Positions 3,001-9,000 of a DNA stretch of 64,000 nt are shown one piece after another. Position numbers: made by a program. The number at the start of each line of letters is the position of its first letter. Position 1 is the first letter of the stretch. The stretch lies in the NCBI RefSeq assembly GCF_041248615.1, contig NZ_CP158426.1. One strand, given 5' to 3'. The DNA comes from Escherichia coli (GTDB lineage: Bacteria > Pseudomonadota > Gammaproteobacteria > Enterobacterales > Enterobacteriaceae).

Positions 3001-6000
3001 ATGGTGTTTACTCTTGAGGGGACGGCCTATTTATAAAATACGGACATTTCAATAAATGCCCGTATAAACAGAGTATGATTCTGGCTGGTCGTTGAGTATC
3101 AATGTTGGACCGAATGTGAACGAATAAATAATTCGTTTATTTTACCACCCATTCTCTTTTCGATTCGTTGCTTGTACGCGTAGATGCTACGGATATCCAT
3201 ATCCAGAACTTCAGCAATCTGATATGGATTATAACCAGAAACCATATACCCCATTATGGTGAATTCCATCTGAGTTAATGTGTTACCTCTGGTAAATGAT
3301 AAATAACGACCAATAAATAGTTGTCTGATCTTTTCATTGGCAACATCAAGACCATCATCATTATATATGACAGCAGATATTGCTGAGTTGTGTTTTCGCC
3401 AGTAATTAGCTAACGATTGCATATTGCGGTCGCTGACTAAAACAATCCCCATGTCAGTACTTGCAAGATAGTCAATCCAGTCTTTTTCAAGGAATAGACG
3501 TAAAAAACTTACTGAAAAATCGACAAAAATATATCCGCTTAATCTCGCATTGTGGTTTTTTGTTAAGATACCTTCTACCACACCACGATTAAAATATGAA
3601 CTTTCTTCGGGCCACATACAAAAACACGAGTTTGCGCAATACTGCAAACGCGGTGACTCTTCTGGCATTATTTGGCAATGCATTGAGCAACTATTGCATG
3701 TAAGACTTTTATAACGACTACAAAGCCCCATGTTAAGAACCTCCCTATCCGTATATAATTGCATAATTTCATTGGTTATTGATGATGTCAATACACCATG
3801 ATTTTGTAATTTGCCGGGAAAAATTGCGATTAATCTGTATTTGCTATAATTCTGAGTAAGGCATTTAAAAATGCATTTCTCGTTATCAAATATGATTATG
3901 TTTCACTGATTTAATCTTGCATGGTTGAGAGCGGTCCAGATAACTATCTCATGGTATAAGAATATCTATATCGCAAATTGTTTTTGAATGACCAGAAGAT
4001 ATCTTGCGAATCTAAGTTATGCATCTTAAATAGTCTTATTTAAGATGTTCAGATCTCTTTGTGTGTTTAACTAACTGATAATACTAGGATATGACGAGAG
4101 AAGTGATAGGGTGGAATAATAACAAATGAATATTATGAAAAATGGAATGGTTCAAAATTGTAGCAATTTTGAACCATCCACAACTGATATTAGCTAAAGA
4201 ACATTACCGATACGCACAGGATACCCACGATCAGCGTAATCAGATTTCCGATGGAACGCCAGGGTTTAAGCGCCGGGATGAGATACGTTGACAGCGTAGG
4301 CATGATGAAAAGTATCATGGCAATGAGCGGGCCGCTGATCGCGTAAATCATCGAAATCGCGTTCGGGTTAATGCAACAAACAATGAAGGTAATCAGCGAT
4401 ACCAACATAATTGATAGTGCGCGGTTAAATGCACGACTTTTCTTTACACCAACCTGCTGTAGTGTTGTTTTGACGACCTCTGTGGCACCTTCAATAACGC
4501 CAAAGTACGTACCCAGGAATGATTTCGACATCGCAACTACTGCGACAATAATCCCGGAAATTGACAACCATGCTGGGGCGTTCGGCAGCATAGAAAGCGC
4601 CGATAAAATGGTGACCCCTTCTTCTTTAGCAGCTTCAATATACGAAGGTGGAATAGAAAGCAGGCAGCTAAAGACAAAGAACAGTACACTTATGCAGATG
4701 ATGAGATAAGCGACTTTCATAATTTTTTTGCATTTATCCATAGCGTGTTCGCCATATTTTTCACGTCTGTCTATGGCAAACGTAGAAATAATGGGCGTAT
4801 GGCTAAAGGCGAAAACCATCACGGGAATCGATATCCATATCTGGTGAAGGGTATTCTGATTGAACTCTACCTGGGTTGTTAATAGATCAGGTTGCCAACT
4901 ACCGACAAGGTAAATGGAAAGAAATAAGAAATAGGCAATCAATGGGAATACCAAAAATCCCATTACCCGAATAGTGGCATGACGTCCCATCAGAAAAATG
5001 AGATTCAGAATTAATACAACACCCAGACTCACCAACATACGGATGCGAAGATCAATAACCATATGCTTTGCCAGCTGTTCCGTAAGTGAGTTGGTAATTG
5101 CCACTGCATATATCAACACGACGACAAAAAAGGCGATGAAGTACAGCGTGGTAATCAGATTACCAATCTTCTTGCCATAGTAGTGTGTTACCGCGCCCGT
5201 TATCCCTTCACCTGCTGATGTTTTTGATGAGAGGATGAACTGGCACAAGGCTTTATGTGGCCAATATGTTAAAGGCCAGGCGACCAGAGCAGTAATAAAC
5301 AGGACCACAGCCCCTGCCGAACCTAACTGAATAGGAAGGAAGAGCGTGCCTGCACCAACGGCTGTGCCGTAGAGCGCGAAACTCCACAGAGTTTCTTCTT
5401 TAGACCAAATATTAGACATTATCTGAACGTATCATCTACAAATTAAACAAAATGGAGGGCAATTTACCATAAACCAGGTTAAGTATGGGAGATTAACGCC
5501 CTATCTACCCCTCTATTGGTGGGTTAGTGGTTGCAAACCTTACGTGCCAGTTATGTCTCTGACTGCTGCTCAGGCATATTTCCTTTGTGATAAAAATCAC
5601 TTTTTTTAAACAATTAAGATAACTGTAATTAACAATCATTTACTATTGCACTGTTAATTGGTGCGAGGTTGTGATGAAAGACGTTGTGATTGTCGGGGCG
5701 TTACGGACACCTATCGGCTGCTTTCGTGGTGCGTTAGCGGGTCATTCCGCCGTGGAACTTGGTAGTCTGGTCGTGAAAGCGTTAATAGAACGTACCGGCG
5801 TTCCTGCATATGCGGTGGATGAAGTAATTCTTGGTCAGGTGTTGACTGCAGGGGCAGGGCAGAATCCGGCAAGGCAATCGGCTATTAAAGGTGGTCTGCC
5901 TAATAGCGTTTCTGCAATCACTATTAATGACGTTTGCGGTTCCGGGCTTAAAGCACTGCATCTGGCTACTCAGGCGATACAGTGTGGCGAGGCTGATATT

Positions 6001-9000
6001 GTCATCGCCGGTGGCCAGGAAAACATGAGCCGCGCACCACATGTTCTGACTGATAGCCGCACCGGTGCACAGCTTGGCAATAGCCAGTTGGTTGACAGTC
6101 TTGTGCATGATGGGTTGTGGGATGCCTTCAATGATTATCATATTGGTGTCACCGCCGAAAATCTGGCTCGCGAATATGGCATCAGCCGTCAGTTGCAGGA
6201 TGCTTACGCACTTAGCTCGCAACAAAAAGCGCGAGCGGCGATTGACGCCGGACGATTTAAAGATGAGATCGTCCCGGTAATGACCCAAAGTAACGGGCAG
6301 ACGTTGGTTGTTGATACCGATGAACAGCCACGCACTGACGCCAGCGCAGAAGGCTTAGCCCGTTTAAATCCTTCATTTGATAGTCTCGGTTCTGTGACAG
6401 CGGGTAATGCATCATCCATAAACGATGGCGCAGCTGCGGTAATGATGATGAGCGAAGCCAAAGCACGAGCGTTGAATTTACCCGTGCTGGCCCGCATTCG
6501 CGCATTTGCCAGCGTTGGTGTAGATCCGGCATTGATGGGAATTGCGCCGGTGTATGCGACCCGCCGTTGCCTGGAGCGTGTAGGCTGGCAGTTGGCTGAA
6601 GTCGATCTTATCGAGGCTAATGAAGCGTTTGCTGCACAGGCGCTTTCGGTTGGCAAGATGCTTGAGTGGGATGAGCGTCGGGTCAATGTCAATGGTGGCG
6701 CGATCGCACTCGGTCACCCGATAGGCGCTTCCGGTTGCCGAATCCTGGTTTCTCTGGTTCATGAAATGGTGAAACGTAATGCCCGCAAAGGACTGGCAAC
6801 GCTTTGTATCGGCGGGGGCCAGGGTGTGGCATTGACCATTGAACGTGACGAATAGCTCTGCATTTCCTCCTTACCGATAAATATCTGCCGTCATTAATCT
6901 GTTGAATAATGATGGCTGGCAAGTCGACATACATTTTCTGGGCTCCCTCATTTTTCCATTCTCATGACATATTCGTGATCGACACTGCACTTTTTTTAAT
7001 CCTTAACTTAAAAATGAAACATTGTTTTATTTTTAATTGAAAACCCTAGCCCATGGGCATATTATCCCTTTATAGAGAAAACGAAACAGTGTTTCACTAT
7101 CGTTTTCTATTTTCACGCTTCACTGATTATCGGAGGTTGATGTGGACGTAAGACAGAGCATCCACAGTGCGCACGCAAAAACGCTGGATACCCAAGGGCT
7201 GCGCAATGAATTTTTGGTTGAAAAGGTATTTGTCGCCGATGAGTACACCATGGTTTACAGCCACATTGACCGAATTATTGTTGGCGGCATTATGCCGATA
7301 ACTAAAACGGTTTCCGTTGGCGGGGAAGTTGGTAAACAACTCGGCGTAAGCTATTTCCTTGAACGTCGCGAGTTAGGTGTTATCAATATTGGCGGTGCCG
7401 GTACGATTACTGTCGATGGCCAATGCTATGAAATCGGTCACCGCGACGCCCTGTATGTTGGTAAAGGTGCAAAAGAAGTTGTCTTTGCCAGTATTGATAC
7501 CGGCACTCCGGCGAAGTTTTATTACAATTGCGCACCCGCGCATACGACGTATCCCACCAAAAAAGTCACACCGGACGAAGTATCTCCAGTCACGTTAGGC
7601 GATAACCTCACCAGTAACCGTCGCACGATTAACAAATATTTTGTCCCGGATGTACTGGAAACCTGCCAATTGAGTATGGGGCTGACGGAGCTGGCTCCGG
7701 GTAACTTGTGGAACACCATGCCGTGTCACACCCACGAGCGCCGGATGGAAGTTTATTTCTATTTCAATATGGATGATGACGCCTGCGTTTTCCACATGAT
7801 GGGGCAGCCGCAAGAAACGCGTCATATTGTGATGCATAACGAGCAGGCGGTGATCTCCCCGAGCTGGTCGATCCATTCCGGTGTCGGAACCAAAGCTTAT
7901 ACCTTTATCTGGGGCATGGTCGGTGAAAACCAGGTCTTTGATGATATGGACCATGTGGCCGTTAAAGATTTGCGCTAGTTGTGGGCATAAACGAATAAGG
8001 TATTGTTATGATTTTAAGTGCATTTTCTCTCGAAGGTAAAGTTGCGGTCGTCACTGGTTGTGATACTGGACTGGGTCAGGGGATGGCGTTGGGGCTGGCG
8101 CAAGCGGGCTGTGACATTGTTGGCATTAACATCGTTGAACCGACTGAAACCATCGAGCAGGTCACAGCGCTGGGGCGTCGTTTTTTAAGCCTGACCGCCG
8201 ATCTGCGAAAGATTGATGGTATTCCAGCACTGCTGGATCGCGCGGTAGCGGAGTTTGGTCATATTGATATCCTGGTGAATAACGCCGGATTGATTCGCCG
8301 CGAAGATGCTCTCGAGTTCAGCGAAAAGGACTGGGACGATGTCATGAACCTGAATATCAAGAGCGTATTCTTCATGTCTCAGGCAGCGGCGAAACACTTT
8401 ATCGCGCAAGGCAATGGCGGCAAGATTATCAATATCGCGTCAATGCTCTCCTTCCAGGGCGGGATCCGTGTGCCTTCTTATACCGCATCAAAAAGCGGCG
8501 TGATGGGTGTGACGCGATTGATGGCGAACGAATGGGCTAAACACAACATTAATGTTAATGCGATAGCCCCGGGTTACATGGCGACCAACAATACTCAACA
8601 ACTACGGGCAGATGAACAACGTAGCGCGGAAATTCTCGACCGCATTCCAGCTGGTCGTTGGGGACTGCCGAGTGACCTGATGGGGCCGATAGTGTTCCTT
8701 GCCTCCAGCGCTTCAGATTATGTGAATGGTTATACCATTGCCGTGGATGGCGGTTGGCTGGCGCGTTAATTCATTCTTCTTACTTTTATGACCCTGCCGC
8801 ATGGCAGGGTTTTTTATACCTGTAGATCATCATAATCCATATCATGGTTATGAAATAATCCATATTAATTATCAATTAATGAACTTTATGAATTTTATCT
8901 GCTGTAAAATTAGGTGGTTAATAATAATCTCAATAATTCAACTTAATTTGAAAATTGGAATATCCATCACATAACGACATGTCGCAGCAATTTAATCCAT

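Follow-up and report, generated by a model that had tools for sequence, protein, structure and literature searches.

The genes yqeG and yqeF stand head to head near one end of a 64,000-nucleotide stretch of the Escherichia coli chromosome (contig NZ_CP158426.1; this whole stretch is called the window below), yqeG at 4190–5419 on the minus strand and yqeF at 5674–6855 on the plus strand. We suggest that they are two independent, vertically inherited core genes of the Enterobacteriaceae, which lie at the edge of the ETT2 insertion, are expressed from promoters of their own, and have become juxtaposed secondarily; the probability of this reading is put at about 0.75. Both are real and intact genes on which purifying selection acts. 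A preliminary description of this DNA, made from the sequence alone, had described the pair as flanked by two orphan regulators, yqeH and yqeI, and had taken an IS1 insertion to have removed part of a module that regulates it.

The RefSeq annotation used here is that of E. coli NRZ14408 (NZ_LT599825.1, 1088001–1097000), which is 100% identical to the stretch tested, positions 1–9000 of the window. The open reading frames (ORFs) lie where they had been placed, and RefSeq names and domain matches agree with them, so that the divergent arrangement and the gene identities given in the preliminary description stand. After yqeF follow kduI, kduD, araE, ygeA, lysR, lysA and galR, an order that is kept in K-12 MG1655, where yqeG is b2845 and yqeF is b2844. 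In K-12, yqeJ, yqeK, ygeF to ygeQ and the tRNA gene glyU come beyond yqeH and yqeI and make up the degenerate type III secretion island ETT2. The locus is already catalogued, and nothing in it is structurally new.

Core genes at the boundary of ETT2

The 2.8-kb block containing yqeG and yqeF occurs as a single copy, always at 95% identity or more, in 5,419 of 5,426 complete E. coli genomes. One E. coli strain has an IS903B element inserted in the block (NZ_CP136018.1, 936325–940191). For comparison beyond the species, 80 species-level loci of Enterobacteriaceae were chosen by their YqeG orthologue. The orthologues are 73–99% identical and come from Citrobacter, Salmonella, Enterobacter, Klebsiella, Kluyvera, Raoultella and other genera; yqeF lies beside yqeG in about 70 of the 80 loci. 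Pairwise ratios of nonsynonymous to synonymous substitution (dN/dS), calculated against five genera, are 0.02–0.04 for both genes, and the guanine-plus-cytosine (GC) content of yqeG tracks that of the host genome, reaching 56% in Klebsiella pneumoniae. Distribution, dN/dS and host-tracking GC content together identify yqeG and yqeF as functional, vertically inherited genes and not as island cargo.

The surroundings of the pair are AT-rich, as had been noted before: GC content is 37% in yqeH, 41% in the yqeI fragment and 37% in the yqeG-yqeF spacer, against 50.6% for the whole window, and it dips to about 30% at 3801–4200. yqeF itself has 53.6% GC and yqeG 44.5%. The low value for yqeG is one of the points that speak for a horizontally acquired, H-NS-silenced ETT2 island of which yqeG, or the whole pair, would be a part. 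Some papers on ETT2 likewise count yqeF and yqeG as its last genes, and a fragment running from yqeG to ygeL has served as an H-NS-bound silenced test region (PMC12460168). However, orthologues of both genes are found at the same position in genera without ETT2, their divergence follows the species relationships, the GC content of yqeG follows the host as described above, and the genomes that carry the block include the present ETT2-less strain. A patchy, GC-poor distribution that coincides with ETT2 was found for yqeH and yqeI and not for yqeG and yqeF. As an account of where the genes came from, island membership is already refuted, and overall its chance of being right is close to negligible; occupancy of yqeG by H-NS is possible.

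What is left of ETT2 lies on one side of the pair only, downstream of yqeG, so that the two regulators do not flank it as had been stated, although their identities proved correct. yqeH (3099–3731, minus strand), the first gene of ETT2, is annotated as a LuxR/GerE-type regulator, and its product has a GerE/LuxR helix-turn-helix domain in Pfam and a weak similarity to EcpR. The fragment of yqeI (2274–2765, minus strand) holds the N-terminal 164 codons of a ToxR-like ETT2 regulator, including its Trans_reg_C winged helix, and is labelled by RefSeq as a pseudogene ‘missing C-terminus’. It is cut by a 768-bp copy of the insertion sequence IS1 with insA and insB (1506–2273, minus strand), recognized by its Pfam IS1 domains and annotated as IS1B, for which the RefSeq feature spans 1521–2218. 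Homology to K-12 restarts at 2274, which is codon 164 of the 269 codons of yqeI and K-12 coordinate 2988993. The nine bases flanking IS1 on either side, CACTAAAAA and GACAAATGC, form no target-site duplication, as would fit an IS1-associated deletion and not a simple insertion. This suggests that ETT2 was taken out by an IS1-mediated deletion or recombination, the junction of which the element marks. All that remains between the tRNA-Gly gene and the yqeI fragment is IS1 and about 4.8 kb of accessory DNA unrelated to the island, so that ETT2 is essentially gone in this strain and is reduced to yqeH and the 164 codons of yqeI that adjoin IS1. About 218 complete E. coli genomes, whose left flanks vary, have an IS1 at the same position in yqeI and share the right junction, with homology starting at the left end of the element (1506); the junction is a lineage marker and not a fresh event. 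The DNA to the left of IS1 (1–1505) is AT-rich accessory DNA without a counterpart in K-12; about 9% of complete E. coli genomes contain similar DNA, for which the annotation is hypothetical only.

Published work places the ETT2 cluster of about 30 kb between yqeG and glyU (bioRxiv 396804; PMC11068852), which makes yqeH and yqeI of the window its first two genes and puts the yqeG-yqeF locus at its right-hand boundary; unlike ETT2, yqeG and yqeF are core genes beyond the island. YqeI has been listed among the ETT2 regulators and YqeH called an ETT2 transcriptional regulator, and deletions of yqeH and yqeI in avian pathogenic E. coli affect motility, biofilm, serum resistance, espE3 expression and virulence (PMC11068852). 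In the literature searched, including some of the papers that name both pairs of genes, no report was found of an effect of yqeH or yqeI on yqeG or yqeF. Homologues of YqeH and YqeI in the 80 loci are confined to Escherichia and to Citrobacter sedlakii/amalonaticus. The two genes are, then, proximal genes of ETT2 and not orphan regulators of the pair. The truncation of yqeI by IS1 is confirmed, but the truncated gene belongs to ETT2, and its loss would be part of the decay of that island, with no regulatory loss for yqeG or yqeF.

In C. sedlakii/amalonaticus the YqeH homologues, 78–79% identical, lie about 3.1 kb from the start of yqeG, between yqeG and rcnR-rcnA, and C. sedlakii has a YqeI homologue in addition; in other Citrobacter and in Salmonella rcnRA follows yqeG directly. 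Downstream of yqeG there seems to be a recurrent insertion point for islands. On the core side of this boundary, a terminator-like hairpin was found directly past the yqeG stop codon (4145–4179, minus strand) by a terminator scan and a repeat search. It contains a perfect 14-nucleotide inverted repeat (4147–4160 and 4164–4177) and forms the end of the core gene, ahead of the AT-rich ETT2 DNA; apart from it, the repeat search gave only short repeats at chance level.

The yqeG-yqeF spacer and the LysR-PACE module

The ORF of yqeF, called mechanically, opens at GTG 5671 (394 residues), and the RefSeq start is ATG 5674. Given a conserved GAGG 5 nucleotides upstream (5665–5668) together with the RefSeq start, ATG 5674 is the likely start codon, and the spacer consequently measures 254 bp (5420–5673) and not the 251 bp (5420–5670) first given. 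When it is compared with other genera by blastn and MAFFT, only its two flanks align. Based on alignments of 80 upstream regions of yqeG and 71 of yqeF, the E. coli spacer would consist of two conserved blocks, each proximal to a promoter, with about 105 unconserved bases (5474–5577) between them.

The block next to yqeG (5420–5473, minus strand) is conserved only up to TATGGTAAATT, with no conservation further upstream. It includes TGGTAAATT at 5469..5461 on the minus strand, which resembles an extended -10 element. The corresponding motif TGnTAAA[T/C]T is found 49–51 nucleotides before the yqeG ATG in 70 of the 80 loci, and as near variants in the rest, with or without a PACE gene upstream. 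The block is probably a promoter with its leader, from which yqeG would be read, TGnTAAA(T/C)T being the presumed extended -10. An alternative reading for other genera is a promoter of the form TTGCAC-16-TATAGT, which is degenerate in Escherichia.

The end next to yqeF (about 5578–5673, plus strand) is conserved in all genera. It carries a putative CRP box, TGTGATAAAAATCACT (5586–5601, plus strand, centre 5593.5), with one mismatch to TGTGA-N6-TCACA. TGTGA-N6-TCAC is present in 70 of the 71 regions upstream of yqeF, mostly 88–91 nucleotides before the ATG and in a minority 100–102. Downstream of it lies an A+T-rich block (5602–5646, plus strand) with 80–100% column conservation in the 71 sequences, which contains AACAAT repeats at 5609–5614 and 5631–5636 and a -10-like TACTAT at 5641–5646. 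The sequence at the -35 position, GATAAC, is a poor match, as would be expected of an activator-dependent promoter. Measured from centre to centre, the CRP box precedes TACTAT by about 50 bp, which would place it near -60 if transcription starts 7–9 nucleotides past the hexamer. This geometry fits a catabolite-sensitive promoter of class-I type, and yqeF would therefore be expressed with the fad genes under carbon limitation. Binding of CRP at this box and the position of the promoter are predictions; consistent with a CRP-dependent promoter, the yqeF transcript drops together with those of fadABDEIJ in a CRP V140W mutant, as seen by RNA-seq and quantitative reverse-transcription PCR (PMC7174635). 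In E. coli about 140 bp separate the box from the presumed yqeG start, and in most genera this distance exceeds 1.5 kb, so that the box probably serves yqeF only.

No shared conserved operator was found in the spacer, where the preliminary description had proposed to look for one. What is conserved lies close to one gene or the other, with different motifs on either side, and the mark of a divergent co-regulated pair, adjacency with a shared operator conserved in orthologous loci, is absent. The centre of the spacer, folded on both strands, is no more stable than shuffled sequences (z about +1), its small ORFs are trivial and unsupported, and a search of positions 1–12000 of the window against Rfam gave zero matches. 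Genomic SELEX (systematic evolution of ligands by exponential enrichment) peaks reported close to yqeG fall into the yqeG-yqeH or the yqeF-kduI interval, and none into the divergent spacer.

Two further motifs were considered. In many genera (loci L064 and L068 and those of the Enterobacter/Klebsiella type) a perfect palindrome of the T-N11-A type, ATTGTTGATAACAAT, occurs in the interval from the CRP box to the -10; as an operator for a LysR regulator it was rejected, because Escherichia, Salmonella and Citrobacter have it in degenerate form regardless of the presence of LysR. GTTA direct repeats of the ArcA type, within the AACAAT block, are spaced by 10 and 12 bp, not 11, and are left as speculation; no binding data were found in the literature that names both yqeF and ArcA, of which a part was read.

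Between yqeF and yqeG, the centre of the spacer is the position at which most Enterobacteriaceae carry two genes, for a LysR-type regulator and a PACE efflux transporter. The start codons of yqeF and yqeG are 254 bp apart in Escherichia; in about 55 of the 70 loci the gap is 1.64–1.86 kb long and contains the LysR and PACE genes. In Salmonella diarizonae, for example, it encodes a 287-residue LysR-type regulator, co-directional with yqeF and with AceR as its best NCBIfam match, and a 159-residue PACE transporter, co-directional with yqeG (PF05232; NF033665 at 210.7 bits, above the cut-off). In the compared locus L007 the AceR-like LysR gene is at 8437–9300 (minus strand) and the AceI-type PACE gene at 9380–9859 (plus strand). 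The two genes are mutually divergent, which is the classic AceR/AceI layout. The pair is seen in Salmonella, Citrobacter, Enterobacter, Klebsiella, Kluyvera and others, and is absent from the window and from Escherichia. Protein identity of the two products to the Salmonella copies falls with phylogenetic distance, from 83–87% in Citrobacter through 72–77% in Enterobacter to 63–73% in Klebsiella.

The idea that yqeG and yqeF form a co-regulated divergent unit, with shared operators in the spacer and a YqeH/YqeI control module that was damaged by IS1, can be judged against this background. The four genes are physically close, AT-rich DNA is continuous from yqeI into the end of yqeG, and the H-NS-bound fragment mentioned above spans yqeG to ygeL. 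On the other hand, homologues of yqeH and yqeI are missing from about 74 of the 80 yqeG loci, both genes have been annotated and studied as part of ETT2, the presumed partners are parted in most genera by 1.6 kb with another regulator and a pump, and the centre of the spacer is unconserved even inside the family. Such a unit is very unlikely, and gene distribution has already largely refuted it. The spacer map and the assignment of yqeH and yqeI to ETT2 argue against hunting for a shared operator and against treating YqeH and YqeI as regulators of the pair.

The history of the gap bears on how yqeG and yqeF came to be juxtaposed. When YqeG and YqeF are concatenated and placed on a neighbour-joining tree, loci with a short gap fall into at least six separate clades, namely Escherichia, Intestinirhabdus, Pseudenterobacter, Superficieibacter, a Pluralibacter group and Klebsiella indica. 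In Salmonella arizonae (locus L010, 9211–10000) an internal deletion of the gap has left the C-terminal 170 or so residues of LysR and no PACE gene; this is an intermediate of module loss, caught in the act. Klebsiella indica retains 48 nucleotides of the PACE-yqeG spacer. The head-to-head adjacency of yqeG and yqeF in Escherichia would be a derived state, in which the module that most relatives carry at this spot is lacking, and we infer that the event in Escherichia was a loss.

A more far-reaching version holds that yqeF, LysR, PACE and yqeG were ancestrally a four-gene unit, the regulator-pump half of which was deleted at least six times independently, once in Escherichia, and that E. coli lost its only PACE transporter and the original inducer-responsive control of yqeF and yqeG in this way. 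This has a slim chance of being correct; if true, the loss would help to explain the silence of yqeF and yqeG in laboratory E. coli and their missing assignment. E. coli is not known to have PACE transporters. If this holds, the yqeF-yqeG gap would be the place where a PACE gene is missing.

The YqeG transporter and the YqeF thiolase

YqeG is a 409-residue amino acid permease. Its membership of the HAAAP family is clear, with 43.4 bits to PF03222 (Trp_Tyr_perm; cut-off 22, E 3.2e-11), but its place in the STP subfamily is borderline, as it matches the whole TIGR00814 model (‘serine/threonine transporter’) with 516 bits, just below the cut-off of 525.8. Its protein cluster at NCBI is named ‘HAAAP family serine/threonine permease’. 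As proposed in the preliminary description, it is a paralogue of SdaC, the serine:H+ symporter encoded at the other end of the window (61797–63086, minus strand): the two proteins align end to end with 38% identity over 413 columns (BLASTP, E 1e-97). When the HAAAP paralogues of K-12 are set side by side, identity is 39% to SdaC and lower to the others (TdcC 31%, CyuP 22%, YhjV 19%), which makes SdaC the closest. A search of PDB sequences with YqeG returned no solved relative, and a search of protein databases gave only close orthologues and generic names, without a functional clue.

YqeG resembles SdaC and TdcC (HAAAP family, TC 2.A.42, STP subfamily) in its full-length alignment, in Pfam and TIGRFAM families and in length. 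A weak phenotype on amplification links it to threonine, since multicopy yqeG weakly rescues a strain without the known threonine carriers (PMC12003319), and it was induced along with sdaCB in lettuce medium in three strains of enterohaemorrhagic E. coli (PMC6729007). Unlike sdaC and tdcC, which belong to sdaCB and tdcABCDEFG, yqeG is not part of a deaminase operon, and the TIGR00814 score just under the cut-off is a further difference. By analogy with SdaC and TdcC, YqeG would be a secondary transporter that most likely uses proton coupling to take up a small hydroxy amino acid of the serine/threonine type.

yqeF encodes a 393-residue thiolase II (acetyl-CoA C-acetyltransferase; CoA, coenzyme A) and is a paralogue of atoB. 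Its product matches Thiolase_N (PF00108, 348.5 bits, E 2.8e-104) and Thiolase_C (PF02803, 178.4 bits, E 4.9e-53), passes the cut-off of TIGR01930 (468.8 bits against 240.55), and stays under that of the narrower NF004206 (652.6 bits against 688). It is near thiolases of solved structure (8gqj, E 1e-173). Identity to AtoB is 58%, and Cys88 (the nucleophile), His348 and Cys378 (the base) are matched by identical residues in AtoB. Purified YqeF is active and condenses acetyl-CoA with acetoacetyl-, hexanoyl- and benzoyl-CoA, in one round and with short precursors only; in vitro it resembles AtoB but is less efficient (PMC9541201). The enzymes are thus alike in catalytic Cys/His/Cys, length and restriction to short-chain acyl-CoA, and differ in the single condensation round and the lower efficiency of YqeF. 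Unlike atoB, yqeF is monocistronic, lies outside atoDAEB and not beside AtoSC, and has the conserved CRP-type box instead. The protein is an AtoB-like short-chain acetoacetyl-CoA thiolase.

Published expression data for yqeF are in keeping with a nutritional response. In O157:H7 its expression rises as cells pass into stationary phase (PMC2241611); the gene is among the differentially expressed fatty-acid-catabolism genes, with fad and prp, in a ptsA mutant on dihydroxyacetone (PMC6643234), and is lower in human urinary infection than in culture, as are other carbon-starvation genes (PMC2978726). The earlier statement that the roles of the two genes are not established remains right for their physiology, and for yqeG it is shared by the authors of the threonine study, who list its physiological function as not established (PMC12003319); it does not apply to YqeF as an enzyme, in view of the activity in vitro.

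Neighbourhood and nutrient response might also mean that yqeG and yqeF, ancestrally with LysR-PACE, are coupled in one pathway, in which, for example, an imported amino acid would yield a short acyl-CoA for the thiolase and PACE would export a by-product. The two genes are neighbours in about 70 of the 80 loci and in many genera, and both are nutrient-responsive in published transcriptomes. Adjacency is weak evidence, however, because kduID and araE also hold their place in the Enterobacteriaceae. Moreover, where synteny breaks, no thiolase is found beside yqeG: its neighbours are a hutF-like amidohydrolase and a GntR/UTRA regulator in Shimwellia (locus L014, 7466–11233), a major facilitator superfamily (MFS) transporter, a LysR regulator and an M32 carboxypeptidase in strain LSJC7, and fimbrial genes in Entomohabitans. 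LysR-PACE is a self-contained AceR/AceI layout, and each of the two genes has a proximal block of its own, that of yqeG without a CRP box. Finally, Escherichia sp. MOD1-EC7003 has an intact yqeG with a truncated yqeF. On balance a common pathway is unlikely.

In Escherichia sp. MOD1-EC7003 (locus L003, 9007–10001) yqeF is reduced to a fragment encoding 151 residues of the thiolase, kduI and kduD are gone, and yqeG stands beside araE; since this strain keeps yqeG only, yqeG can persist without yqeF. In Shimwellia pseudoproteus YqeG is 90% identical to that of E. coli, above many closer genera, and lies in a different context, which may reflect horizontal transfer or be a hint to the substrate.

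Several observations weigh against two independent genes with promoters of their own and the history proposed for them. The pair remains together across most of the family, which leaves some chance of a functional link. Unlike SdaC and TdcC, YqeG showed no measurable uptake of threonine at 800 µM when overexpressed (PMC12003319), and its substrate may therefore be outside serine and threonine. One-mismatch matches to TGTGA-N6-TCACA are not rare, with 5 in the window against 1.8 expected, and a generic scan for sigma-70 promoters and terminators found no consensus promoter in the spacer and only the hairpin past yqeG. A remnant of LysR or PACE was sought in the E. coli spacer by local alignment, which did no better than with shuffled controls, and by blastn and tblastn, which returned nothing, so that the case for a loss in Escherichia draws on parsimony and on the intermediates; in raw event counts, repeated loss and repeated gain come out about equal.

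yqeG and yqeF belong to the ‘y-ome’ of E. coli, for which the expression leads collected here are mildly useful. Engineered reverse beta-oxidation makes use of YqeF, and YqeG is among the last HAAAP transporters without a substrate. The analysis adds a map of the spacer, with a CRP-type box at yqeF throughout the family, a conserved promoter and leader block at yqeG and an unconserved centre, and it adds the LysR-PACE module of most relatives, which is not found in Escherichia at this exact spot. No major question of the field is changed by these results.

Further one-mismatch matches to the CRP core lie in the window at 21963–21978, at 52010–52025 and, as a pair, at 57180–57235. The pair sits in the gap between two divergent ORFs, 55715–57031 on the minus strand and 57578–58225 on the plus strand.

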